Notes: a model not told the origin generated them from the sequence alone. A DNA stretch of 64,000 nucleotides from Pseudomonadota bacterium (GCA_043827325.1 JBDRPF010000071.1:7795-71794), one strand, 5' to 3'. Shown: positions 1 through 60,786, numbered from the stretch's first letter. Numbers and translations: made by a program.

Positions 1-283
1 GCTCAAAAAATTTAATTCTAAGGGTTGATTTAGTAAAAAGTTGTCAGTCTATCAAAAATTAAAACAAATGAGCGAAAGAAATAATAAATTGATTTTCTGT
101 GGAAAGGAGGTGAATTTTCAATAACCTGTCTCTGCCGCCTGCCTGAACAACGGCAGAAAAGGAATTGAAAAACCCGGCGTTAATCAGCCTTGAACTCCTT
201 CTCTCTGTTTTGATGCGATATGAAACGGACCGTCGGGTTCAAGGCACGTGTTAAATTCATTATACTAAAGGGAGGTTTAAACT

Positions 284-1930
284 ATGGGTAAAATACCGGA
301 AAACATGCTGCCACCGAAAGATCTGTGGCCTGAATATTTAGTTCCAGAAGAGTTTGCAGATACGCCGGATGAGTTAAATCTGGCTGACTTTCTGCTCGAC
401 CGCCATGTACGCGAAGGCAGGGGTGACAATGCTGCTATCAAGTTTATGGACCAGACCATCTCCTATGCCAAGCTGCAGGAAATGGTCAATAAGTTCGGGA
501 ACGCGCTCAAAAACGTCGGCGTTGGAGCCCAGGACCGAGTGGGGATTCGTCTGGTGAATTCCATTCAGGCCCTGGTGGCCATCTTTGCCATTGAAAAAAT
601 CGGCGCGATTCCGGTACCCACTTCTCCGCTATGGTCCGGCGAAGAAGTCGCCTTTGTGGCCAACAATGCCGAGATGAAACTTTTTATTGTCAATGCCCCG
701 TTGATGCCTCCGGTTGAGCAGGCCAAACCGAATTTTAAATACGGCACCAAGGTCATCGTCATCGGCGGAGAAGCCGCCGCAGTAAAGACGGCCGGCAACC
801 TGGTCTACGAAGAGATGCTCGCGGCCGGTTCCGACAAGCTGGAAGCCACCATGCTCAAGGGAACCGACATCGGCATCATGTTATACACCTCGGGCACCAC
901 CGGCATGCCCAAAGGCTGCGTGCACTTTGTAAAACCGATTGTTATCGAGACCAAATTAGTCAACAAGCATGTTTACAATATGAAACCCGGTGATTGTCTG
1001 GGCGGGGCCGCGCCGGTTTCCTTTGCGGCCGGTTTCGGCACCTTCACCCTGATGCCGTTTGAAGGGGGCGCCGCTATTTCCCTGATTCCAAAGTTCACAC
1101 CGCCGGACATGCTGGATCTGATTCAAAAACATAAAATCACCATCCTCACCGGTCTGCCCACCGGCTACCGCGCCCTGATGAAGTTCCCAAAATTCAAGGA
1201 TTATGACACCAGTTCGATCCGTCTCTACACCTCGGGGGGCGACGCTCTGGGCGTTGAAACGCTCGAGGGTTGGAGAGCACTAACCGGAAAGCCCATCTGG
1301 GAAGGCTTGGGCGGCACGGAGATGCTGCACCTGGTCACTTCCAATACCATGAACGACGAACCGATGCCCAACTCCATCGGCAGAGCCCTGCCCGGCGTAC
1401 AGTGCAAGGTCGTGGATGCAGACTGGAATGACTGCAAACCGGACCAGGTCGGCAGCATGGTTATTAAGGGACCCTCGGGAAGCCTGTACTGGAAGCCTTA
1501 CGAGGATAACGAAAAGCTCATCAAATCCCAAAAGAAGGGCGTGGTCAACGGCTGGAACCAGATGGGTGACGCGGTTTTCATGAAAGAAGACGGCAACATC
1601 TTCTTCGTTTCCCGCGAAGACGATATGATCAAGAGCTCCGGCTACCGTATCGGGCCTGCCGAGGTGGAAGAAGCCATCGAAAAGTTTCCGGGTGTTGCCG
1701 AAGCCGGCATAATCGGCATTCCTGATCCGGACAAGGGCCAGATTACCAAGGCCTTTGTGGTGCTGAAGGAAGGCGTTGAAGGCAACGACGAGTTCTTTGA
1801 AAACCTCAAAACATTCTTGAAAGAACACATTGCCATCTACAAACTGCCCAGAGAAATCGAATACAGAACCGAGCTGCCGCGCACACCCACCGGCAAGCTC
1901 TTGCGCCGTCATCTGCGCCCGGCCAAATAA
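284..1930 (+). CDS. AMP-forming acyl/aryl-CoA ligase (benzoate/2-aminobenzoate-CoA ligase-like)
   Basis: 548 aa; AMP-binding motif LYTSGTTGMPKG, WEGLGGTE, GD..., REDDMIKSSG, C-terminal PRTPTGK; SD GGAGG upstream. Confidence 0.85.
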   Translation: MGKIPENMLPPKDLWPEYLVPEEFADTPDELNLADFLLDRHVREGRGDNAAIKFMDQTISYAKLQEMVNKFGNALKNVGVGAQDRVGIRLVNSIQALVAIFAIEKIGAIPVPTSPLWSGEEVAFVANNAEMKLFIVNAPLMPPVEQAKPNFKYGTKVIVIGGEAAAVKTAGNLVYEEMLAAGSDKLEATMLKGTDIGIMLYTSGTTGMPKGCVHFVKPIVIETKLVNKHVYNMKPGDCLGGAAPVSFAAGFGTFTLMPFEGGAAISLIPKFTPPDMLDLIQKHKITILTGLPTGYRALMKFPKFKDYDTSSIRLYTSGGDALGVETLEGWRALTGKPIWEGLGGTEMLHLVTSNTMNDEPMPNSIGRALPGVQCKVVDADWNDCKPDQVGSMVIKGPSGSLYWKPYEDNEKLIKSQKKGVVNGWNQMGDAVFMKEDGNIFFVSREDDMIKSSGYRIGPAEVEEAIEKFPGVAEAGIIGIPDPDKGQITKAFVVLKEGVEGNDEFFENLKTFLKEHIAIYKLPREIEYRTELPRTPTGKLLRRHLRPAK

Positions 1931-1963: not shown

Positions 1964-2000
1964 ATCCCCTCACCTCTTTCGGGGTGGGGGGATTTTTTTT
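1964..2000 (+). terminator. Rho-independent terminator
   Basis: hairpin ATCCCCTCACCTC-TTTC-GGGGTGGGGGGAT followed by a T-run, just after the CoA ligase stop. Confidence 0.75.
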
Positions 2001-2001
2001 T

Positions 2002-2053
2002 GGCAAAATAATTACGGGCAAAATAATTTGCTGTTTATCAAATCATTTATGCC
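2002..2053. repeat. GGCAAAATAAT inverted dimer repeat, copy A
   Basis: two GGCAAAATAAT units at 15-bp spacing (2002, 2017) and an inverted degenerate ATCATTTATGCC; same family at 12957-13017 and 14602-14668. Confidence 0.65.
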
Positions 2054-2236
2054 ACCCCGAACAGGCGCGTTCGTCCGTATATTCTTGAACGCATAATCCC
2101 ATTATTTCATCAGGGTGGTGTGATCTTTTATTAAATTAAATCCCATAAAACCGGTATGGTATAGCCCGCCTCAACTTCCTGAGAATTTAAAACAATTTTT
2201 GCAATTGCCCTTTACACGGGTGGCCATTTGAAATAC

Positions 2237-2263
2237 ATATAAAATCGCATCGCGATTTTATAT
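2237..2263. repeat. ATAAAATCG-Nx-CGATTTTAT palindrome
   Basis: ATATAAAATCGC-ATC-GCGATTTTATAT; related copies at 17820, 32457, 46337, 50229. Confidence 0.65.
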
Positions 2264-2279
2264 AAAAGGAGGAAAAACG

Positions 2280-3239
2280 ATGGTAAATTTGCCGGTTGCA
2301 TTAAAACCCGCGGAACGTGTCGAAATCACCACGCTGATCGATAATTACATCGATCTTCTCTTGCCCCCTACAGACATCGTCACACGGCCGCCGCTGGCCA
2401 AAGGCGGAAAAATTCTGGCCGACACGCTGCTGGCGGAGCACGGCCTGTCACTGCTCGTCACCGTTTACAACGGAGAACAAAAAAATACCGTCCTCTTTGA
2501 CACCGGATACACCGGTGTCGGCGTACTCCACAATATGGAAAAACTGGAAGTGCGTATCGAGGACATCGAAGCCATCGTCATCAGCCACGGACACATGGAC
2601 CACACCGGTTCCCTGATCCCCATTCTCGACAAAATACCCGGCCGGATTCCGCTGGTGCTTCATCCGGGCGCTTTTATATATCCCCGGTACACCGCCGCCC
2701 CGGACGGTGCCAAGCGCCTGTGGCCCAGAACCCTGGTGAGGGATGAACTGGTACAAAAAAACATCGAACTTGTGGAAAGTAAAACACCGACGCTCATCGC
2801 TGGCGACAGAATCATGGTCACCGGCGAAGTGAAGCGCACCACACCATTTGAAAAAGGGATGCCCAACGCGCTTCTGGAGAGAGATGGAAAATTCGTGCAG
2901 GATCCCATCTCGGAAGACCAGGCGATTGTCGTAAACCTCAAAGACAAGGGGTTGGTGGTCATTTCCGGCTGCGCGCACGCAGGGATCGTCAATACGGTCA
3001 TGTCGGCCCGGAAAGCCGCCGGGGAAGAGGCTGTCCATGCGGTCCTCGGGGGATTTCACCTCTCCGGTCCTTTTTTTGAGAAGATCCACGATGACACGGT
3101 CCTGGAATTGAAAAAGATTGACCCGGAGGTCGTTGTACCCATGCACTGTACGGGATGGAAGGCCATTCAGCGATTCCAGAAAGAATTTCCCTCCCAGTTT
3201 GTGCTCAACAGCGTGGGGTCCAAAATAACGCTTTCCTGA
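2280..3239 (+). CDS. MBL-fold metallo-hydrolase
   Basis: AEHGLS, LFDTG, SHGHMDHTG, SGCAHAG, GGFHL, PMHCTG motifs. Confidence 0.85.
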   Translation: MVNLPVALKPAERVEITTLIDNYIDLLLPPTDIVTRPPLAKGGKILADTLLAEHGLSLLVTVYNGEQKNTVLFDTGYTGVGVLHNMEKLEVRIEDIEAIVISHGHMDHTGSLIPILDKIPGRIPLVLHPGAFIYPRYTAAPDGAKRLWPRTLVRDELVQKNIELVESKTPTLIAGDRIMVTGEVKRTTPFEKGMPNALLERDGKFVQDPISEDQAIVVNLKDKGLVVISGCAHAGIVNTVMSARKAAGEEAVHAVLGGFHLSGPFFEKIHDDTVLELKKIDPEVVVPMHCTGWKAIQRFQKEFPSQFVLNSVGSKITLS

Positions 3240-3317
3240 TGCCTCAGAGATAAGCGGACAGGCGCATTTTTAACACCCTGATTTTTATTAAAACGATAAT
3301 GTTTTTGTAATATGTTC

Positions 3318-3356
3318 AATTTCGAATATCGAACACTGAATATCGAATGTCGAAGG
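3318..3356. repeat. degenerate 7-bp tandem repeat (GAATATC-like)
   Basis: CAATTTC GAATATC GAACACT GAATATC GAATGTC GAAGG. Confidence 0.55.
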
Positions 3357-3362
3357 TTAGCC

Positions 3363-4601
3363 ATGAAAATAAAACCTGAAAATTATCGAAACGTTCTCCT
3401 GTTCTTTTTTAAACATATCGCTGTCGTTGTCTGTCTGTTGATTTCATCCTTTTTAAGTGACGCCGGCGCAGCCTCAACCATAAAGATCGGCGAGATCAAC
3501 CCTCTCTCAGGAAGGTTCGCCCAGCAGGGTCTTGAGATCCATCAGGGTGTAAAAGTCGCGTTGGCCGAAGCAAACGAAGCCGGCGGGATCGGCGGTCAAA
3601 TGCTGGAGCTTGTCTCCCGTGATGATCAGAGCCTGCCGGATGTGGCCATCTCCAGGGCTGAAGAATTGTGCGGAAAAATTGATGTGCTTGCAATTACAGG
3701 TGGTTACGTGGATTCCCTGGTGGGACCCATCAGCGAAGTGGCCAGAAAATATAAAACACCCTACGTGGCCAGTGCGAGCCTTCAAAAGGAACTGGCAATG
3801 AACGAAAACCCTTATTTTTTCAGGGTCTCAAGGCTTCAGGGATTCGTTGAACCGCTTTGCAATGCCCTTGCCGAACAGTTTCAACCCGAACGACTGGCCA
3901 TCATTCACGCATCAACCCCCGGATCTACGGAACTCGCCCGGGACCTGGAAGCCTGCCTTCAGGCCCGCGGCACGACCGTGGCACTCATGGAAAAATTTCG
4001 TCCCGGCACGCCCGATTTCACACCGCTTATCGGCAAGCTTTCCAGCATGAACGTTGATGTTATCGTCTCCGGCGGCTTCACCCCGGACCACATGCTTCTG
4101 ATACGCCAACTCAAGGAAAACAGGGTAAGCCCCAAAGCCTACATCGGTCCTTTCGGCATCGCATATGAAAGCTTTATTCAGGCAATGGGTGACAACGCCG
4201 AATACATGTACAGTACATCCGCCTGGGGTCCTGAGTTCACGCTTCCGGGTACGGAAAAAACTTCAGCGGCATTTGTCCAAAGATTCCGCCAGATGTTCAA
4301 CGGGCAGCCCAATACGACAAACATGCACGGTTACACTTCCGCCCGGGCACTGATCGCGGCCATGGGGGAAGTCGTGAACCGCGACATGCCGCTCACCGGC
4401 GATAATATTCGCCGGATGCTTTCTGAAATTGACATGGCGCTTCCCATGGAACAGCTTGTCTTTGACCCGCAGGGGGATCCCATGCACTACAGTCACGTGG
4501 TCGTTCAAATTCAGAAAGGTAAAATCGAAGCAGTCTATCCACCGGAACGAGCTACCGCAACGGCAATCTATCCCGTGCCGGGATGGGATCAGAGGAAATG
4601 A
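3363..4601 (+). CDS. Liv-type (HAAT) ABC transporter substrate-binding protein
   Basis: signal-like N-terminus, IKIGEINPLSG, N.AGGIGG..LELVSRDD; start moved to ATG 3363 because the longer ORF runs through the repeat. Confidence 0.85.
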   Translation: MKIKPENYRNVLLFFFKHIAVVVCLLISSFLSDAGAASTIKIGEINPLSGRFAQQGLEIHQGVKVALAEANEAGGIGGQMLELVSRDDQSLPDVAISRAEELCGKIDVLAITGGYVDSLVGPISEVARKYKTPYVASASLQKELAMNENPYFFRVSRLQGFVEPLCNALAEQFQPERLAIIHASTPGSTELARDLEACLQARGTTVALMEKFRPGTPDFTPLIGKLSSMNVDVIVSGGFTPDHMLLIRQLKENRVSPKAYIGPFGIAYESFIQAMGDNAEYMYSTSAWGPEFTLPGTEKTSAAFVQRFRQMFNGQPNTTNMHGYTSARALIAAMGEVVNRDMPLTGDNIRRMLSEIDMALPMEQLVFDPQGDPMHYSHVVVQIQKGKIEAVYPPERATATAIYPVPGWDQRK

Positions 4602-5458
4602 TGTGGACCACAGCGCTCGTTTCCGGAATCTCCCTAGGTTCATTCTATACCCTTATTGCTCTGGGGTTCGCCCTGATTTACGGGGTAACCCGTAATTTCA
4701 ATCTTGCACACGGTGAACTCCTGGTGCTGGCAGGCTACACGGCGTACTGGCTCTGGAAGACATGGGCCATCCCTTTCCTGGTAACATTCCCGGCCGCCAT
4801 CATCGTTATTCTCGGCGTCTGCCTTGTCCTCCAACGCCTTTTTTCGCGACTCGGTGAACCACGGGAGTTGAATTCCATTGTACTGAGCTTCGGCATTGCA
4901 ATTCTTTTGCAAAACGCAATGCTCTTCCTTTTTTCCGGTGATTATCGGCTCATTCGGGTACCTACCCTTGGCAAGGGGCTCTTTCTGTTTGATTCTTACG
5001 TCAGCTACAGTCAGCTCATATTGCTTCTGCTGTCCCTGGTTGTGATCGGATTGCTCTCCCTGCTCATGAATCGCACCTACCTGGGCAAGGCGCTGAGAGC
5101 CACCATCCAGGACAAGGAAGCAGCCGCACTTGCCGGTATCAATATCAAGGCCATGGGAACTCTCGCCTTCGGCCTGGGCGCCATGCTTATCGGGCTGGCA
5201 GGACCGCTTTACGGCGCCACGCACTATCTCTATCCATCAACCGGGCACGGCGTCACTCTGCTGGCCATCACGATCACCATTTTTGCGGGTGTCGGCCGTA
5301 TCCGTGGGGTCATTCTGGCAGGATGGATCCTGGGGCTGGCGGAATCGGCAACGGTGATTCTGCTGGGTGCCAGCTGGCGGGAAATGGTCGGCGCCGTCCT
5401 GCTGATTTCCCTTCTGGCCCTCAAACCCCGCGGTATCCTCGGAAAAGAAGAGCAGTGA
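4598..5458 (+). CDS. livH: Liv-type ABC permease (LivH-like)
   Basis: ALGFALIYGVTRNFNLAHGE, GKALRATIQDKEAAALAGIN, KPRGILG; ATGA overlap with the upstream stop. Confidence 0.85.
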   Translation: MMWTTALVSGISLGSFYTLIALGFALIYGVTRNFNLAHGELLVLAGYTAYWLWKTWAIPFLVTFPAAIIVILGVCLVLQRLFSRLGEPRELNSIVLSFGIAILLQNAMLFLFSGDYRLIRVPTLGKGLFLFDSYVSYSQLILLLLSLVVIGLLSLLMNRTYLGKALRATIQDKEAAALAGINIKAMGTLAFGLGAMLIGLAGPLYGATHYLYPSTGHGVTLLAITITIFAGVGRIRGVILAGWILGLAESATVILLGASWREMVGAVLLISLLALKPRGILGKEEQ

Positions 5459-5470
5459 AAAATACAGTCA

Positions 5471-6463
5471 ATGACTTTATCTGTTGCAAAAGACACAAAA
5501 GTTAGATCCAGAGGAATAAAACTCGATGATAGCGGTCTTGTGCTGCTTTTCTTTGTTTTGCTTCTGCTGCCCCTTCTGGTTCGGCACGACGACTACATAT
5601 TACAGGTGTTCACCCACGCCCTGCTCCTTGCCACCCTGGCGCTCGCATGGAACATCCTGGGGATCAGCGGTTCAATCTCTCTCGGGCATGCAGCCTTTTT
5701 CGGTGCAGGCGCCTACACATCAGCCCTGCTCAGTCTCGAAGCCGGGCTTTCACCCTGGCTCACCATACCCCTGGGTGGTTTGCTCTCCACCGGTCTCGGC
5801 CTGGTCATGAGCATGGTCTGTCTGCGGTTGAGGGGCGCCTACTTTGCACTGGCAACCCTTGCCTTTGTGGAGATACCCAGGGTCATCACCGACAACTGGG
5901 ACTGGCTGACACGGGGTTCCCTCGGGTTGGTCGGATTGCCGGGGTTGCCGTCGCTGCACCTGGGTTCACGATCTTTTCATATCGGCTCCAGTGTTACCGC
6001 CTCTTACTATCTCGTCTTTGTCTATGCCTTATTCCTGTCGTGTCTGGTGGGATTTATCTTTCGCTCCAATCTGGGAATCGCCCTGCAGGCCGCCAGAGAG
6101 GAAGAGGTCGCGGCTCAATCCGTCGGTATCCGGGTTGAAAGATTTCGCCTGTTCTCGCTGCTGGTGAGCGCGTTTTTCGCCGGCGTCAGCGGTGCCTGTT
6201 ATGCGCACCTGGTCCGCTATATCGGACCCGAGCTGGTCTATGGTATCCATTTTTCAGCCGCTCCGATGATCTTTGCCCTTTGCGGCGGGCGATTTACCAT
6301 CTTGGGTCCTGCGCTTGCAGCACTGATCCTCTACCCGATGGATCAATTCATATTTCACCCCCTGCTCCCCGCGGGCCACGAGTTTCTCTATGGCGCGGTG
6401 CTCGTCCTGGTTGTCATCTACATGCCCCGGGGCTTTTGGGGGAGTATACGGAAAGCGCCTTGA
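5471..6463 (+). CDS. livM: Liv-type ABC permease (LivM-like)
   Basis: SLGHAAFFGAGAY, LRGAYFALATLAF, AAREEEVAAQSVGI, PRG. Confidence 0.85.
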   Translation: MTLSVAKDTKVRSRGIKLDDSGLVLLFFVLLLLPLLVRHDDYILQVFTHALLLATLALAWNILGISGSISLGHAAFFGAGAYTSALLSLEAGLSPWLTIPLGGLLSTGLGLVMSMVCLRLRGAYFALATLAFVEIPRVITDNWDWLTRGSLGLVGLPGLPSLHLGSRSFHIGSSVTASYYLVFVYALFLSCLVGFIFRSNLGIALQAAREEEVAAQSVGIRVERFRLFSLLVSAFFAGVSGACYAHLVRYIGPELVYGIHFSAAPMIFALCGGRFTILGPALAALILYPMDQFIFHPLLPAGHEFLYGAVLVLVVIYMPRGFWGSIRKAP

Positions 6464-7203
6464 CACTTCTGCAACTGCATAAAATTACCAAAACATTCGG
6501 TGAAATCCGCGCACTGAATGGAATTGACTTCACGGTCAAAGAAGGTGAGGTCGTCGGACTGGTGGGTCCCAACGGGGCCGGAAAAACGACCCTGTTCAAT
6601 CTGCTCAGCGGCCGGTTCAGACCCGACAGCGGCAGAATTATATTTGCCGGCAGGGAAATTACCGGCCTTAAACCGCATGCGATCTGCCGATTGGGAATCA
6701 GCAGGACCTTTCAATCCTCCCGGCCGTTCGCAAAAATGACGGCCCTGGATAACGTAATCGTGGGTTGCATTTTTGGCAAAGGGTTTTACCTGCGCCCTCG
6801 CGGAGAGGATAAAGACACGGCACGGGAACTTCTGGAAGTGGTGGGTATCGCCCACAAAGCCGATACACTCGGTGGGGATCTCACGCTCAGTGAGCTGCGC
6901 CGGCTGGACTTGGCGCGCGCGCTGGCCACCCGGCCGCGGCTCCTGTTGCTGGACGAGGTGGCGGCCGGGTTCAGCCCGGTGGCCGTGAAGCAGGCGGTGA
7001 AGCTAGTCCTCAGGGTCCGTGACAGGGGTGTGACGCTGCTGGTCATCGACCACTTTCTCAACCTGAGCTTGAAAGTGTCGGACCGGCTGATCGCCCTGGA
7101 TTTCGGTGAAAAGATTGCCGAGGGCCGGCCGGGTGAGGTGATGAAAAACCCGGAGGTGATACAGGCGTATCTTGGCCTGCGTCACGAGGAGGAGCACGAG
7201 TAA
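6460..7203 (+). CDS. livG: Liv-type ABC ATPase (LivG-like)
   Basis: Walker A GPNGAGKTT, ISRTFQ, LLLLDE, V..AYLG; TTG start overlapping the livM stop. Confidence 0.85.
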   Translation: MTLLQLHKITKTFGEIRALNGIDFTVKEGEVVGLVGPNGAGKTTLFNLLSGRFRPDSGRIIFAGREITGLKPHAICRLGISRTFQSSRPFAKMTALDNVIVGCIFGKGFYLRPRGEDKDTARELLEVVGIAHKADTLGGDLTLSELRRLDLARALATRPRLLLLDEVAAGFSPVAVKQAVKLVLRVRDRGVTLLVIDHFLNLSLKVSDRLIALDFGEKIAEGRPGEVMKNPEVIQAYLGLRHEEEHE

Positions 7204-7275
7204 AAAGCCTATATCCTAAAAATTCGGTTTGGGTTTTGTTAAAAAATGACAGGTTTTCGTAAGTTCTTAAGATTA

Positions 7276-7305
7276 TGGAGTGGTGGAGTAATGGAGTAAT
7301 GGAAT
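7276..7305 (+). repeat. left 8-bp tandem array (TGGAGTAA-type) flanking the four-helix-bundle gene
   Basis: TGGAGTGG TGGAGTAA TGGAGTAA TGGAAT abutting ATG 7306. Confidence 0.8.
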
Positions 7306-7740
7306 ATGCGTAAAAACAAGAATCGAGGGTATCAAAAATTGAGAGTATGGAATGATGCGATCGATTATTATGTAAAAACATGTAAGGTTTTCCGCAGATT
7401 TCCCTATGAATTAAAGCGAATCGCATCGCAGGCAATAGCAGCGAGTGATTCTGTCCATCGCAACATTTCTGAAGGGTATTGCAGGCGTTCAATCAATGAA
7501 TATCTGTATTTTCTTAATATAGCACTTGGCTCACTTGGTGAATCCGTATCAGGGCTTTATGCCTATCGAGAAGCGAATCAAATTACAGAAGACGAATTTC
7601 AAACGTTGGATACGTTGGCCTTTAAGCTGGAAAATGGCCTTCTAAAGCTCGTTGAAAGCCTTGAAGCAAAACGAGAACGAGGGGAATGGACGGACTGTTT
7701 GATGATTAAGGAAAGCAACTCAATTTATGGCAACGAATGA
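7306..7740 (+). CDS. four helix bundle protein (23S_rRNA_IVP / TIGR02436 / bAvd-like fold)
   Basis: YQKLRVW, SQ...ASDSVHRNISEGYCR, YLYFLNIALGSLGE match the family pattern; AT-richer than the flanks. Confidence 0.85.
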   Translation: MRKNKNRGYQKLRVWNDAIDYYVKTCKVFRRFPYELKRIASQAIAASDSVHRNISEGYCRRSINEYLYFLNIALGSLGESVSGLYAYREANQITEDEFQTLDTLAFKLENGLLKLVESLEAKRERGEWTDCLMIKESNSIYGNE

Positions 7741-7776
7741 CCATCACTCCAGTACTCCAACACTCCAATACTCCAT
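7741..7776 (-). repeat. right 8-bp tandem array (TACTCCA-type), inverted relative to 7276-7305
   Basis: CCATCACTCCAGTACTCCAACACTCCAATACTCCAT directly after the stop codon. Confidence 0.8.
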
Positions 7777-7841
7777 TTTTATATCGATATATTCATGCTA
7801 TACTCAACCCATAGTTTTTTAAGAACGTTAAAATAGATGAT

Positions 7842-8594
7842 ATGCAAAATATGGAAACTATCAAACCACTGATGTCCGTATGCAACCTGACCGTTTACTA
7901 CGGTGACGTTCAGGTACTCTCCCGGGTGAACTTAACGGTTTGTTCCGGGCAGATCGTCTCGATTGTCGGGCTCAACGGTTCCGGGAAAACCACACTGATG
8001 AAATCGATTGCGGGCCTGATCCGTCCGGTTCAGGGTGCCGTCACCTATGAAAATGAGCAAATCCAGAAGCTTCCCGTGCATGAAGTCGTTCGCAGAGGGC
8101 TTGTTTATATTCCGGAAGGCATGAAGGTCTTTCCGGTCATGAATGTGCTGGAAAATCTGGAAATCGGCGCCTACATTTCACGGGGGCAGAAAAAAGACCG
8201 GCTCGATTTTGTGTTCGAAATCTTCCCGGTCCTGGCGGAAAAGCGTCGAAAGCTGTCCGGGACTTTGAGCGGCGGACAGAAACGGATGTTGACCGTGGCA
8301 CGGGGGCTCATGAGCGGCGCCCGTCTCCTTTTGCTGGACGACCCTTTTCTCGGCCTGGCACCAAAGGATGTAAACCGGCTCTGCAACACGCTGAAACAGA
8401 TACGCCGCCGCGGATTTACCCTGCTGCTGGCAGGACAGCACGTCCGTCGGATTCTGAAGGTTGCCACAAAGGCCTATCTTTTAGAGGAGGGAAAGATCAC
8501 TCTTTCCGGCACCGGAGATCAGTTGATGGGCCACCCCCACCTTCAGGAAAGCCTGTACGGCGTAGTTGCCGGGGCAGGTGTTGAAATACCGTAA
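7842..8594 (+). CDS. livF: Liv-type ABC ATPase (LivF-like)
   Basis: GLNGSGKTT, YIPEG..VF, LSGGQKRML, LLLLDDP. Confidence 0.85.
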   Translation: MQNMETIKPLMSVCNLTVYYGDVQVLSRVNLTVCSGQIVSIVGLNGSGKTTLMKSIAGLIRPVQGAVTYENEQIQKLPVHEVVRRGLVYIPEGMKVFPVMNVLENLEIGAYISRGQKKDRLDFVFEIFPVLAEKRRKLSGTLSGGQKRMLTVARGLMSGARLLLLDDPFLGLAPKDVNRLCNTLKQIRRRGFTLLLAGQHVRRILKVATKAYLLEEGKITLSGTGDQLMGHPHLQESLYGVVAGAGVEIP

Positions 8595-8681
8595 CAAATG
8601 TTCTGGCAGAAGAAACAAAGCAAAGCCATCCGGGTCCAAAGGACCGGGCTTTTCAGGGCTAAACAAGTCTGACATTTTGCG

Positions 8682-8709
8682 TTGACAACGGACACATATA
8701 TGTTAACTT
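8682..8709 (+). promoter_or_regulatory. putative sigma70 promoter and operator of vapBC
   Basis: TTGACA-16 nt-TAACTT with palindrome ACATATATGT in the spacer. Confidence 0.5.
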
Positions 8710-8750
8710 ATACCCAAAACAGATATTAACGACGAACCGGGAGGTGCCAT

Positions 8751-8981
8751 ATGGGACAGGTTACCATTTATCTTGACCCTGAAACGGAGAGCAAAATGCT
8801 CAACATGATAAAAAAAAGCGGTATTTCCAAAAGCAAATGGATTGCTGAATTAATCCGAGACAAAACGGCCAACGCCTGGCCGGAAAACGTCAAAAAACTT
8901 GCAGGGGCCTGGGAAGATCTGCCGACGGCCGAAAAAATCAGAGAAGACATGGCGAATGATGCGGAGAGGGAATCGATCTGA
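8751..8981 (+). CDS. vapB: RHH/CopG-like antitoxin (VapB-type)
   Basis: 76 aa, MGQVTIYLD..SKSKWIAELI; stop overlaps the PIN toxin start. Confidence 0.7.
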   Translation: MGQVTIYLDPETESKMLNMIKKSGISKSKWIAELIRDKTANAWPENVKKLAGAWEDLPTAEKIREDMANDAERESI

Positions 8982-9382
8982 TGTATATTCTCGACACAAA
9001 TACCCTGGTTTATTTTTTTAAGGGCGTGGGAAATGTTTCCAAACATATGCTCACGGTACCGCCAAAAGATATTGGCATCCCTACCATTGTTCTTTTTGAG
9101 TTAGAATTGGGGATCGCAAAATCAACATCGCCCGAGAAAAGACAGACTCAACTGAAAAATTTAACCGCCGTTGTTAACATTCTTCCTTTTGGTTATGACG
9201 AGGTAAAATGCGCGGCGTCCATCCGTATTAATCTGGAGCGAAAAGGAATGCCCATCGGTCCATACGACATACTGATTGCCGGAGTTGCAATGGCGAACAA
9301 AGGCATCCTTGTAACCCACAACGCAAAGGAGTTCGGGCGTATAAAAGGTATTCAGGTTGAAGACTGGTATGAAGCAAATTAA
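8981..9382 (+). CDS. vapC: PIN-domain toxin VapC
   Basis: YILDTN, LFEL..G, IGPYDILIAG, LVTHN..EF..I.G..VEDW. Confidence 0.9.
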   Translation: MYILDTNTLVYFFKGVGNVSKHMLTVPPKDIGIPTIVLFELELGIAKSTSPEKRQTQLKNLTAVVNILPFGYDEVKCAASIRINLERKGMPIGPYDILIAGVAMANKGILVTHNAKEFGRIKGIQVEDWYEAN

Positions 9383-9478
9383 ATGCCTATTGACTTACCG
9401 AAAAAAAGTTGGATATTCTTTACCACATGATTTTCATTCAGAGATTGCAAACCATTCTATTCTTCACGGAGGTAAAAC

Positions 9479-9886
9479 ATGACTGAATCACTGAAGGCCG
9501 GCATGACCCATGAAATCGAACGGCAAACAACGGAAGATATGTCGGCACAAAAGGTCTTCCCTCACGTCCCCAATGTCTATGCTACGAGCGTGATGGTGGG
9601 ACACATGGAAGAGGTTTGTGCAGGGATGGTCCACCCTCACCTGGGTGAAGGCGAGCAAACCGTTGGCATCGGAATGCAATTCTCGCACACGGCGGCGACG
9701 CCTTTGGGAATGACGGTTCGGTTCAGCACCAAGTTGATCGAGATAGATGGCCGAAAACTGGTCTTCGAGGTGGAAGGCTTTGATGAGGCAGGCAGTATCG
9801 GCAAAGCCACCCATCAGCGATTTATTATCAATGCGGACAAATTCAACAGCAAGATGGCGGAAAAAGCTGAAAAATCAGGAAAATAA
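9479..9886 (+). CDS. hotdog thioesterase, fluoroacetyl-CoA thioesterase (FlK) family
   Basis: VYATSVMVGHME, TVG....SHTAATPLGM, HQRFII. Confidence 0.8.
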   Translation: MTESLKAGMTHEIERQTTEDMSAQKVFPHVPNVYATSVMVGHMEEVCAGMVHPHLGEGEQTVGIGMQFSHTAATPLGMTVRFSTKLIEIDGRKLVFEVEGFDEAGSIGKATHQRFIINADKFNSKMAEKAEKSGK

Positions 9887-9891
9887 AAGAT

Positions 9892-9946
9892 TTTGACAGG
9901 ATAACAGGATAAAAAATCATCTTGTCTATCCGGTTATCCTGTCTAA
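9892..9946. repeat. inverted 9-bp array (ACAGGAT / ATCCTGT)
   Basis: TTTGACAGGATAACAGGATAA...ATCTTGTCTATCCGGTTATCCTGTCTAAA; half copy at 13809-13830. Confidence 0.6.
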
Positions 9947-9966
9947 AATATACAAGGAGGTGCGTC

Positions 9967-11988
9967 ATGGCAATGCCAGACTCCATTAGCCAATTGGACG
10001 CCGTTTTGAAACCCAAAAGCGTGGCCGTTATCGGGGCTTCGACCAGCCCGGGAAAACTGGGCCATGAAATCATGAAAAACATACTGGACAGCGGCTTTAA
10101 AGGGGCTGTCTACCCCATCAATCCCAAAGCCGCCGCCATCCTGGATATTCCCTGCCATGTGAGTGTCAAAGATATTGCCGAAGCGCCGGATCTCGCCGTC
10201 ATCATCATCCCGGCCCGATTTGTCCCGCAGGCGGTTCAGGAGTGCGGTGAAGCCGGCGTAAAGGGCGTGGTGATTATTACCGGCGGTTTCAGCGAGTCCG
10301 GGCCTGAAGGAGAAGCGCTTCAGCAGCAGGTGGTTGAAAATGCCCGAAAGTACGGTGTCCGTGTCATCGGGCCCAACTGCCAGGGCGTAAACAATCCCCA
10401 TCACCCCCTGTGCGCGTCCTGGCCGCTGTTGACCTACCGGGGCAAAATCGCGCTGCTTTCCCAGAGCGGAACGGTGGGCGCGGCCATGATGGACTGGCTG
10501 TCCGAAGACAAGCTGGGAACCGCCGGTTTTGTCAGTATGGGAAACCGGGCCGATGTGGATGAAGCGGATCTGATCGCCTATTTCAATCAGGATCCAAACA
10601 CCGAGGTTATCGCTGCCTACATCGAGGGCATAAAACGCCCGGAGCGGTTCATCGAAGCGGTAAAGCAACTCAAAAAACCGCTGGTGATTCTCAAGTCGGG
10701 CCGTACCCCGAAAGGCAAGGTGGCGGCCGAATCCCACACCAAGTCTCTGGCAGGCGCTGATGCCATTTATGAGGCCCTCTTTTCAAAATACAACATCTGC
10801 AGGGCCTACACCGCGGAAGAATTTTACGACTATGCCAAGGCCCTGGCCTATCTGAAAGCACCCAAGGGCAACCGTATTCTGTTTATCACCACATCGGGCG
10901 GCGCCGCCATTCTTGCCACGGATCAGGCCGAGCAGGAAGGTCTGGATGTCTCTCCATTGCCGGACGAGGCCGTGGAAGCCGTCACACCGCTCATTCCCGC
11001 ACATGCCATTAAATCCAACCCCATAGATCTCACAGGCGACGCCACCGCTCAGATGTTCGGTGAGGTGATCGGGGTAACTCGAAAATATTACGACACCCTG
11101 GGCGTGATTTTCGGAGACCCGGTGGAGGGCGCTTCCAATGTGGCAACCCCCGGTGCCAATGAACTGATAATCTTTTACGGCGGGGCAGATGTCGAACGCC
11201 ATGAAAGAGAACTCATGCACCTCAAGGGGATTCCCGTTTTTCCCACACCGGAACGCGGGATCAAGGCCCTTGCCAGGGTCATTGAAAAAAAGAAGCTGGC
11301 GGCGGCACAAAAACCCACAATAACCGTCCCGGCAACGGGGCGCCATGTCTCCCCGTATCAGGCGATGACACGAATTGCCGGGCAGGGGATTCCCTGCGCC
11401 GGTTTCGGTCGGGCAGGGAGTGCCGCCGGTGCGGTCAAAATCGCAAAAGAGCAGGGCTTCCCAGTGGTGCTCAAAATCAGCTCCCCGGACATTCTCCATA
11501 AAAGCGACGTGGGCGGCGTTCGCCTCAATCTGGATTCTCCTGAGGCGGTAGAGAAAGCATACGAAAAAATGCTGGCAGCGGTCCGCCGCGCCCTGCCGGA
11601 GGCCCGGGCAGGGGATGTGCTGGTGGGCAAGATGGCGCCGCCGGGGCTGGAGGTCATCATCGGCATGAATCGCGACCCGCAGTTTGGCCCGGTCATGCTG
11701 TTCGGGCTCGGGGGCATCATGGTCGAAATCTTCCAGGACGTCAGCCTGAGGCTTCTTCCCTTGAGTCGTGGTGAGGCGCTGGATATGATCCGGGAAATCA
11801 AGGGGTACACGCTTCTCTCAGGGTACCGCGGCCGGCCGGCGGTGGATGAGCAGGCCCTGGCCGACTGTCTCATAACGGTGGCTCAAATGGCTGAAAACCA
11901 TCCCGAGATTCTCGAGATCGATCTGAACCCGGTCATCGCCTACCCGGATGGGATACTGGTGGTAGACGCAAGGATCATTGAAAAATAA
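9967..11988 (+). CDS. ADP-forming acyl-CoA synthetase (CoA-binding + ligase + ATP-grasp)
   Basis: PKSVAVIGAS, IGPNCQG, SQSG, phospho-His site SHT, HKSDVGGV, DPQFGP, EIDLNP; ATG 9967 after AGGAGG. Confidence 0.9.
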   Translation: MAMPDSISQLDAVLKPKSVAVIGASTSPGKLGHEIMKNILDSGFKGAVYPINPKAAAILDIPCHVSVKDIAEAPDLAVIIIPARFVPQAVQECGEAGVKGVVIITGGFSESGPEGEALQQQVVENARKYGVRVIGPNCQGVNNPHHPLCASWPLLTYRGKIALLSQSGTVGAAMMDWLSEDKLGTAGFVSMGNRADVDEADLIAYFNQDPNTEVIAAYIEGIKRPERFIEAVKQLKKPLVILKSGRTPKGKVAAESHTKSLAGADAIYEALFSKYNICRAYTAEEFYDYAKALAYLKAPKGNRILFITTSGGAAILATDQAEQEGLDVSPLPDEAVEAVTPLIPAHAIKSNPIDLTGDATAQMFGEVIGVTRKYYDTLGVIFGDPVEGASNVATPGANELIIFYGGADVERHERELMHLKGIPVFPTPERGIKALARVIEKKKLAAAQKPTITVPATGRHVSPYQAMTRIAGQGIPCAGFGRAGSAAGAVKIAKEQGFPVVLKISSPDILHKSDVGGVRLNLDSPEAVEKAYEKMLAAVRRALPEARAGDVLVGKMAPPGLEVIIGMNRDPQFGPVMLFGLGGIMVEIFQDVSLRLLPLSRGEALDMIREIKGYTLLSGYRGRPAVDEQALADCLITVAQMAENHPEILEIDLNPVIAYPDGILVVDARIIEK

Positions 11989-12002
11989 AAGAAGAAATCA
12001 AT

Positions 12003-59246: not shown

Positions 59247-60029
<783 letters not shown>

Positions 60030-60072
60030 TCGACCCGGCACCCGGAATGCAGATTTTTTAAGGCAAATACCC

Positions 60073-60786
60073 ATGGCAATGCTCGAGGTTGAAAATGTAC
60101 ACGCCTACTACGGACAGATCCATGCCCTGAAGGACATTTCCTTCACCATCGACAAAGGCGAAATCGTTACGCTGATCGGCGCCAACGGGGCGGGCAAAAG
60201 CACCACTTTGAAGGTCATGAGCGGTTTGCTGCGGCCCCGCAAGGGAACGATCCGGCTGGACGGAGAGGATCTGACAACGCTGCCGCCCCATCAAATTGTG
60301 ACCAGAGGGATGACGCATGTTCCCGAGGGGCGGCGAATTTTCGGCCAGCTTACGGTAATGGAAAACCTCGACATGGGGGCGTTCACCTGCCGGGACAGTC
60401 AGCGAATAAAAACGAACCTCGACAAGGTGTTCGATCTGTTTCCCCGATTGAAGGAGCGGCGCAGGCAGGTTGCAGGGACCCTGAGCGGCGGAGAGCAGCA
60501 GATGCTGGCCATGGGCCGTGCGTTGATGGCCTCTCCGCAGGTGCTTCTGTTAGATGAGCCCTCCATGGGTCTGGCGCCGGTTCTGGTGGACAGTATTTTC
60601 GATACGATCCGGCAACTGCACTCGGAGGGGACGACCATCCTCCTGGTCGAACAGAATGCACGGATGGCGCTGCAGGTGGCGAGCCGGGGTTACGTGATTC
60701 AGACCGGCGTGATGTTGCTCAGTGACACCGCGGAAAACCTCCGGAAAAACGAAATGGTCCGAAAATCCTACATGGGTGAAAACTGA
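60073..60786 (+). CDS. livF: Liv-type ABC ATPase
   Basis: GANGAGKST, VPEGRRIF, LSGGEQQMLA, DEPSMGL. Confidence 0.92.
   Translation: MAMLEVENVHAYYGQIHALKDISFTIDKGEIVTLIGANGAGKSTTLKVMSGLLRPRKGTIRLDGEDLTTLPPHQIVTRGMTHVPEGRRIFGQLTVMENLDMGAFTCRDSQRIKTNLDKVFDLFPRLKERRRQVAGTLSGGEQQMLAMGRALMASPQVLLLDEPSMGLAPVLVDSIFDTIRQLHSEGTTILLVEQNARMALQVASRGYVIQTGVMLLSDTAENLRKNEMVRKSYMGEN

Follow-up and report, generated by a model that had tools for sequence, protein, structure and literature searches.

A four-helix-bundle gene between inverted tandem-repeat arrays in a liv operon, apparently one of a widespread class of hairpin-bracketed cassettes

The DNA analysed here, called the window throughout, is a stretch of 64,000 nucleotides from a Pseudomonadota bacterium (GCA_043827325.1 JBDRPF010000071.1:7795-71794), and our subject is a small gene cassette at 7276-7776 that lies inside a liv operon. 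The genome of origin, G000 below, is a metagenome-assembled genome (MAG) of 2.7 Mb in 91 contigs and is 76% complete. The operon runs in the order MBL-fold gene, livK, livH, livM, livG, open reading frame (ORF), livF, with an intact 144-aa ORF at 7306-7740 (+ strand) sitting between the livG-type and livF-type ABC ATPase genes. The cassette consists of TGGAGTNN four times, the four-helix-bundle ORF, and NNACTCCA four times, and the features of the locus are as follows.

6280..7203, + strand: livG-type ABC ATPase gene, the upstream neighbour (PF00005 with a PF12399 BCA_ABC_TP_C tail; orthologous synteny with the operon of genome G007)
7204..7275, + strand: spacer from the livG stop to the left array, AT-rich (GC 0.29)
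7276..7307, + strand: left arm, four tandem 8-nt TGGAGTNN units, G-rich with zero C
7306..7740, + strand: cargo ORF, 144 aa, four-helix-bundle protein (PF05635/TIGR02436)
7741..7776, + strand: right arm, CCA then four NNACTCCA units (left-arm unit in reverse complement)
7777..7841, + strand: spacer from the right arm to the livF start, AT-rich (GC 0.25)
7842..8594, + strand: livF-type ABC ATPase gene, the downstream neighbour on the same strand (PF00005)

A self-contained unit between livG and livF

The two arms abut the ORF. The last unit of the left arm overlaps the ATG and the array supplies GGAG as a Shine-Dalgarno (SD) sequence 9 nt upstream of it, and the right arm begins at the first base past the TGA stop, with its four NNACTCCA units at 7744-7775. 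An earlier reading of the window, made from the sequence alone (the sequence-only reading), had described an AT-richer 144-aa ORF between livG and livF, with four GGAG-bearing units at its ATG and complementary units right after its stop. Our analysis bears this out, with four units on either side and a GC content of 0.40 in the ORF vs 0.54–0.55 in its neighbours (GC3 0.37 vs 0.63–0.64). It was also right that the two ATPase genes are adjacent in a second liv operon, where the livG-like and livF-like parts lie ~25 nt apart as judged by tblastn ends (~59253-60777). A search with the pattern TGGAGTNNTGGAGTNNTGGAGT, a triple unit with up to two mismatches allowed, returned four matches in the window, all of them at the cassette, and none in 100 shuffles.

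The arms are complementary over 27 nt at 89% or 29 nt at 83%, depending on the register. As RNA, their duplex is predicted at -38.5 kcal/mol, against -19.4 ± 3.3 kcal/mol for shuffled right arms, none of which reached the observed value in 500 trials. When 7255-7800 is folded, the arms are paired around the ORF in both the minimum free energy (MFE) and the centroid structure. The proposal of a ~30-bp duplex that loops out the ORF agrees with these predictions as far as the pairing of the arms goes; the stability of the region as a whole is another matter and is weighed below.

The limits of the unit are given by its other copies. In blastn searches, homology to G019:C25, G007:C21 (two copies) and G008:C7 extends no further than the outer array edges, the matches running from 570/574/576/585 to 1068/1076/1078/1086 of the query (window 6700-8400), which corresponds to window 7269-7785; the unit is therefore the arms plus the ORF, as the sequence-only reading had supposed. 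A further copy, G049:C76, was found by protein search. In the five sequences read, the start codon is directly preceded by 3–6 units and the stop is followed by 3–6 complementary ones. The five copies have different neighbouring genes, save those of G007 and G008 at one common site, and one copy has an internal stop.

The insertion site is free of this cassette in the relatives examined. None of the best-matching livG-livF loci in 11 relatives from the same bacterial family holds it, nor does any of them hold a PF05635 gene between livG and livF, so the check for empty alleles proposed with the sequence-only reading came out in its favour. The livG-livF distance is 61–322 nt in ten of these relatives, and the eleventh (G007) holds a different cassette there, with a 272-aa PDDEXK_3 gene as cargo. 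A contig from a different study, ~96% identical with 59 differences, spans 6803-8191 and contains the element, which indicates that the insertion is fixed in that lineage. Arms and ORF are very probably a self-contained unit that inserted here, with a GC content foreign to its surroundings. A search for near-identical strains without the cassette, using an exact 21-base pattern from the end of livG, gave no match in metagenome_contigs, and coverage holes over the ORF in the contig sets X4 and X17 were uninformative.

The ORF product is a clear member of its family (PF05635 23S_rRNA_IVP, E 1.8e-19, 70.4 bits, cut-off 33.8; TIGR02436 ‘four helix bundle protein’, E 2.3e-21, 76 bits, cut-off 24), and the conserved Q, S, N, E and G columns of the alignment are all found in it. 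Its sole solved relative by sequence is XCC0516 (entry 2gsc, five chains; E 3.6e-7). PHROGs and PADLOC gave no match for the protein, and a search of viral_contigs for carriage by phages found no relative. Compared with seven homologues, synonymous differences are saturated (pS 0.70–0.85) and nonsynonymous differences are few (pN 0.09–0.19; dN/dS ~0.05 where calculable), therefore the protein is under purifying selection. The 6-nt core of the arms is unchanged over a span in which neutral sites became randomised.

A number of smaller features accompany the cassette. The left array has a period of 8 and carries TAA or TGA in most units, such that two reading frames close inside it, and the third ends at a TAA two codons past the ATG of the ORF; a 12-codon upstream frame begins at 7275. 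Ribosomes arriving from livG may be stopped at this frame-closing array. The promoter-like match at 7246-7273 is weak (9/12) and does not count as evidence of function, and the 7204-7275 spacer may or may not have come with the cassette. The listed start of livG is a TTG and the true start probably lies later. Downstream, 8751-9382 holds a 76-aa ORF without a family match and a PIN-domain ORF (PF01850), a VapBC-like pair which separates livF from an FlK thioesterase gene; these two genes are adjacent in the G007 operon.

Paralogues, arm units and spread

G000 has four PF05635 matches, three intact and one broken. The three intact paralogues are all bracketed by inverted tandem arrays at their start and stop codons, each with a different unit: beside the octamers in the window, the C59 paralogue has 9-mer arms of TTGGTTNAA type and the C17 paralogue a ~14-nt, GTGAAACGTGATGA-like unit. 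Of 41 genomes sampled from the family, 40 have PF05635 genes; a single genome can yield as many as 50 matches, and many are broken or lie at contig ends. The genome of Bacteroides thetaiotaomicron, used as a control, matches PF05635 too. To score the arms, the upstream flank of each gene was locally aligned with the reverse complement of its downstream flank, with a threshold of at least 29. This was reached by 21 of 33 family-level PF05635 loci and by 28 of 51 loci of this protein clade (named genomes), as against 5 of 1486 random 100–200-aa ATG-ORFs of G000 used as a control. Three of these five control matches are themselves cassettes (one PF05635 gene, two GxxExxY genes). The sequence-only reading had made flanking arrays at paralogues a check on its proposal, and they are common.

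Arms invariably consist of short tandem arrays; the period is 6–9 nt or more, and the unit varies between protein clades. The 51 clade loci derive from a single-protein search with one genome per species, and the cross-phylum sample is of this clade alone. The closest loci (77–87% identity) are in MAGs labelled Desulfobacterales, Desulfobacteraceae or Thermodesulfobacteriota, a result that also places the organism of the window, and more distant members are distributed as follows.

Nitrospinia: 78% identity
Neomarinimicrobiota: members at 56–75% identity
Calditrichia: 69% identity
KSB1: 68% identity
Lentisphaerales, Victivallales, Verrucomicrobiota, Kiritimatiellales: members at 50–66% identity
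Ignavibacteriota, Bacteroidota, WOR-3, Stahlbacteria: members at 41–54% identity

A period-8 unit of the form TGGA[GA][TG]NN occurs in at least one arm at 40 of 46 clade loci with a readable ORF and in both arms at 27, and at none of 28 loci of other clades. This coupling reaches down to 41% protein identity and covers at least nine phyla. Across these loci, what the arm unit tracks is the protein clade, not the host. Mismatches between arms fall mostly at the NN positions, and 133 of 242 are transversions; it is the repeated core with its spacing that is conserved, and not full complementarity.

The cassettes also have a polarity. The upstream arm contains more G than C on the sense strand in all 21 family-level cassettes with clear arms, which comprise over a dozen different units, and in all 27 such clade cassettes. 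Furthermore, the longest open frame within 900 nt on each side lies on the strand of the cassette in 178 of 189 cases (94%), compared with 647 of 1089 for stand-alone small open frames of G000, a rough gene proxy. Both the bias towards sense orientation and the G-rich-upstream rule fit a constraint that acts at the RNA level or on a single strand in a sense-specific manner. The operon of G007 (L067, G007:C3:239000-250500) reads MBL gene, four-helix-bundle cassette, livK, livH, livM, livG, PDDEXK_3 cassette, livF, FlK, four-helix-bundle cassette, CoA ligase. All of its genes and its three cassettes have the same orientation, and every cassette is bracketed by separate inverted arrays.

A second cargo family and hairpins without an ORF

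The architecture is shared by a second family, GxxExxY (TIGR04256), described in the excerpted text of PMC3424549 as a PD-(D/E)XK family of unknown function. GxxExxY genes were present in 26 of 41 genomes, and at 18 of 30 loci the gene lies between inverted 8-mer arrays of CACGAAGN, CGCAGAGN, CACAGACN or CACGGATT type. Two intact genes are found in G000 (C62:357-719 and C51:8716-9087). Searches of PHROGs and PADLOC with the protein gave weak Cas4-like matches and nothing stronger.

Many arrays enclose no gene. A periodicity screen of G000 detected 18 tandem-array hairpins, mostly with loops of 4–157 nt and units of cassette type. The sequence-only reading needs a correction here, as the arrays are not confined to this gene: TGGAGT arrays occur at nine G000 loci and eight of these have no ORF between the arms. 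Two cases show what such hairpins may once have been: the hairpin at G000 C22:7186-7392 retains, between its arms, the final 47 codons of a GxxExxY gene (E 1.8e-14), and a four-helix-bundle gene of G013 lacks the segment between an internal hairpin of the same unit and its right arm. The ORF-less hairpins are therefore, at least in part, decayed cassettes. The sequence-only reading was sound about a self-contained unit, and it missed both the widespread ORF-less hairpins and the GxxExxY parallel; of its two proposals for the unit, RNase III processing and mobilisation in trans, either may hold.

Array numbers may follow the gene. The median number of TGGAGT arrays per genome is 16 in the five genomes with a close cognate gene and 2 in the 34 others (Mann-Whitney p = 0.002), and TCAAGGNT arrays relate to their own protein clade in the same way (median 11 vs 0.5, Spearman 0.69), all of these being comparisons between interrelated genomes in which the arms of the genes themselves are included in the counts. 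G049 alone has 183 TGGAGT arrays. G004 is a counter-example, with 29 TGGAGT arrays and a cognate gene not found at 95% completeness.

Hairpins are also found in the livG-livF spacers of relatives, clearly in two of eight (G006, G020) and weakly in three. The two clear ones (L025 in G006 and L031 in G020) score 44 and 30, where shuffling gave maxima of 20 and 23. One has a AAAGTGNCT-like unit, the other an ACAGGAT-like unit that resembles the arms of a G000 GxxExxY cassette. No cargo remnant was detectable in the livG-livF spacers of G020 or G006.

More elaborate arrangements of the same kind of array were observed. A composite element of ~170 nt, made of four TGGAGT-type arrays and conserved loops, has three copies in G000 (C2:~190-370, C51:28230-28390 and C65:14229-14400), and the same array pairs, ~78 or 150 nt apart, recur in several g9-genus genomes; this may be a non-autonomous derivative or a structured RNA. 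At G000:C16:5038-5955, inverted arrays of a GATTGTT-type 7-mer enclose ORFs of 102 and 124 aa, the second of which is weakly TumE-like (E 9e-6, under the cut-off), hence arrays may also bracket a toxin-antitoxin-like pair. At G000:C47:27-311, a 240-nt run of GGTTCAG/GGTTCAA heptamers at the contig end is followed by a short complementary stretch.

Some PF05635 genes are themselves interrupted. In L159 (G013:C27:800-1800; ORFs 116-385(-) and 370-564(-)), a PF05635 gene is broken right past Pfam position 45, at the conserved codons for ...PSN, by an insertion that codes for an 89-aa GIY-YIG nuclease (PF01541, E 2.5e-15) and has a simple ~13-nt inverted repeat at its ends. L154 (G008:C95) has an ORF-less version at the same PF05635 codon. 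The arrangement suggests a nested element of the homing type, with the four-helix-bundle gene as its target. Such insertions explain some of the partial PF05635 matches covering positions 1-45, the others being contig ends.

Interpretation and known systems

The cassette belongs to a widespread and apparently undescribed class of selfish gene cassettes with hairpin brackets. For the locus itself, we lean slightly towards reading it as a hairpin cassette of the kind known as the intervening sequence (IVS) of 23S rRNA, which here landed in the mRNA of an operon instead of in rRNA. This is our best reading in view of the Coxiella 23S IVS, which is built alike and cleaved by RNase III. The cassette would lack a dependable promoter of its own and be expressed by read-through from the liv promoter. 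In the polycistronic RNA the arms would pair into a ~27-bp stem that loops out exactly the ORF, and RNase III would cut this stem, as it does that of the Coxiella IVS in vitro, and so free the ORF message; by analogy, such processing of the cassette RNA could as readily prove right as wrong. livKHMG and livF would remain as separately translatable pieces and the insertion would therefore be cheap for the host. The tandem build would permit several pairing registers and let units be added or lost. With free NN positions next to it, the conserved 6-nt core would in turn be a recognition site of the cassette's own pentamer-forming protein, since a core of this kind does not fit a pure RNase III stem and suggests sequence-specific recognition. 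That the protein recognises its arms is a tentative proposal, to which we give less credence than to the processing.

A broader proposal takes four-helix-bundle and GxxExxY nuclease genes with cognate inverted arrays of 6–9-nt units as transposase-less mobile cassettes, in which the protein recognises the units and drives the spread or upkeep of the cassettes and their ORF-less derivatives, and of which the 23S IVSs are the members that landed in rRNA. Here a protein pentamer would meet 3–6 units and the ORF-less hairpins would be the offspring. We regard this as rather doubtful.

Several observations weigh against an IVS-type cassette that is processed in RNA. Folded as a whole, 7255-7800 is no stabler than its shuffles (z = -0.93). 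All five relatives searched have RNase III, but none was detected in the 76%-complete G000, and the enzyme has no need of a conserved core. Changes compatible with G-U pairing were in no significant excess (64 vs 45, p = 0.08), therefore the stem is not kept by compensatory change. Arms fell below the threshold at 12 of 33 family-level and 23 of 51 clade loci, some of which have short flanks or broken genes. No target-site duplication (TSD) was seen by eye in the flanks of the five copies. At least 15 contig ‘joints’ that skip 434–451 nt over the ORF were considered as excision products or empty alleles and rejected; they are other ORF-less hairpin loci, because 16–36 other letters stand between their arms. 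The public runs aligned to the locus consisted of contigs, in which neither RNA ends nor strand can be read, and RNA runs from the probable source study contained almost none of its sequence words. As for the Coxiella element itself, the excerpted text of its description has the authors doubting that S23p is produced in vivo (PMC4990558).

The main rival is a DNA-level system similar to REPIN-RAYT, in which the protein, or in sister cassettes the GxxExxY nuclease, acts on cognate arrays as DNA (hairpin, cruciform or single-stranded) and copies or maintains cassettes and ORF-less hairpins alike, RNA pairing being incidental. We consider this unlikely, if well short of dismissible: ORF-less hairpins of the same unit are scattered over eight G000 loci, arrays are commoner where a close cognate gene is present (16 vs 2, and 11 vs 0.5 for TCAAGGNT), the core is conserved and the NN free as in a binding site, the nuclease family GxxExxY shares the architecture, and every protein clade has its own unit. 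The co-orientation of 94% and the fixed G-rich-upstream polarity speak instead for a single-strand, sense-specific constraint. G004 keeps 29 TGGAGT arrays with no cognate gene found in a 95% complete genome, the array counts include the arms of the genes and come from genomes that are not independent, PF05635 has no known catalytic activity, and a TSD is lacking.

The other three explanations are disfavoured. Chance capture, in which a host REP-like hairpin stood between livG and livF and an unrelated gene entered its loop, the arms being host sequence, would agree with the hairpins in some relatives' livG-livF spacers (two of eight clear, three weak) and with the ORF-less TGGAGT hairpins of G000. 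It is made very improbable by a unit that tracks the protein clade across at least nine phyla, by three units on three paralogues in one genome and by homology between copies that takes in the arms, and no relative examined has a TGGAGT hairpin at the livG-livF site. Scarcely better placed, and if anything a shade less probable, is a domesticated regulatory device that sets the livKHMG:livF ratio or works inside the operon as a terminator or stabiliser. In its favour, the cassette lies within the operon in the same orientation, the right arm runs into a stretch of T, and the ~96% identical strain of the other study has kept the element; against this, it is missing at the loci of 11 of 11 relatives, the G007 operon has three different cassettes at three spacers, and genomes carry up to 50 copies, many broken. 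Absence in relatives, varied cassettes in G007 and many broken copies fit selfish spread and do not fit a liv-specific function. Hardly credible at all is a remnant of a diversity-generating retroelement (DGR) with the ORF as a stranded bAvd accessory gene. PF05635 is the fold family of bAvd, and G007 copies match PF22296 (bAvd-like, E 1e-11), but RVT_1 had no match in the 76% complete G000, no reverse transcriptase was seen among the ORFs of 2000-12000, and in place of a template/variable repeat pair there are short tandem arrays.

The locus shows that the build of the rRNA IVS is common outside rRNA, and what looked like a curiosity of rRNA becomes a general class of genetic element. It reaches up to 50 copies per genome in the Desulfobacterales family, sits in sense orientation inside operons, crosses phyla together with its arms and has a parallel in a nuclease family. 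The class has rules, namely cognate arm units, a G-rich arm upstream and co-orientation with neighbours. For annotation, such genes probably hitch-hike in the cas or transporter operons that hold them and are no functional partners there, and many short tandem-repeat hairpins in these genomes may be the remains of cassettes. If it is true that the protein recognises its repeats, this would be a new type of protein-repeat partnership; only on that condition would one speak of a new class of mobile element, and a transposase-less cassette class would, if true, explain both the origin of IVSs and the short tandem-repeat hairpins of these genomes.

In the literature we could search, most subscription journals lying outside it, neither PF05635 or GxxExxY cassettes bracketed by tandem arrays outside rRNA nor cognate arm units nor the GxxExxY parallel were described. 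With bAvd of DGRs the cassette protein shares the fold family, which includes a pentameric relative (2gsc); it differs from a DGR in having no reverse transcriptase and no template/variable repeat. The likeness to REPIN-RAYT is one of organisation. In that system a Y1 (IS200-like) transposase gene is flanked by its own REPs, and both systems set a gene between inverted copies of a repeat whose short hairpin doublets are also scattered over the genome, with one repeat per gene clade and perhaps a repeat number that tends to follow the gene. The differences are the cargo, a four-helix-bundle or small PD-(D/E)XK protein and no Y1 transposase, and the arms, which in the cassettes are tandem arrays of 6–9-mers; in G000, none of the six Y1_Tnp matches is adjacent to a TGGAGT array.

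Short tandem repeats are known from other bacteria, among them the STRR heptamers of cyanobacteria, which are intergenic. The TAACTGA repeats of marine Beggiatoaceae are direct repeats of 7–8 nt in sets of 2–6 just before start codons, with one inverted set among 170, and the excerpted text neither describes them as bracketing genes nor mentions four-helix-bundle or IVS proteins (PMC4679880). They are similar to the cassette arms in their short tandem build before start codons, and different in being direct repeats. Placement inside operons has a parallel in 18 genes for 23S_rRNA_IVP in cas loci, such as cmr3-cmr2 of Pleurocapsa PCC 7327, which the authors interpret as a functional link with CRISPR-Cas, flanking repeats not being discussed in the excerpted text (PMC3936711). 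By analogy with the liv operon, these look like the same operon-internal hitch-hiking.

The ORF-bearing IVSs of 23S rRNA remain the closest comparison. The four-helix-bundle ORF has been known since 1993. The cassette resembles the elements of Coxiella (S23p) and Leptospira in protein family, in a length of ~430–500 nt and in AT-richness. As described in the excerpted text of PMC4990558, the Coxiella IVS is 428–444 nt long, lies in helix 45 of 23S rRNA and is AT-richer than the genome; its terminal inverted repeats pair to give a 28-bp stem, and an SD (AGAAGA), three GACAGAT heptamers and a degenerate fourth lead up to the S23p ATG. The number of heptamers differs between strains, and RNase III cuts mid-stem at the first repeat in vitro. 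According to the same authors the origin and function of IVSs are unclear, and they cite an older idea that the ORF may serve mobility. The link drawn by the sequence-only reading is thus closer than it claimed, with tandem heptamers that abut the S23p ATG inside the 28-bp stem (PMC4990558). A stem of ~28 bp round the ORF, a variable number of units, and an SD with 3–4 tandem repeats before the ATG are common to both, the heptamers in that text being described for the upstream side. Octamer units and a site between two protein genes of an operon set the cassette apart, and no tandem-array hairpin was found in the 23S genes of G007, G013 and G049, the assembly of G000 containing no 23S gene. 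Terminal inverted repeats enclose the cassette as they enclose an IVS, and tandem repeats with an SD stand right before its ORF as in Coxiella; its place is not inside a 23S gene at helix 25 or 45. Because it lies between livG and livF the cassette is not an IVS by location, though it is built like one.

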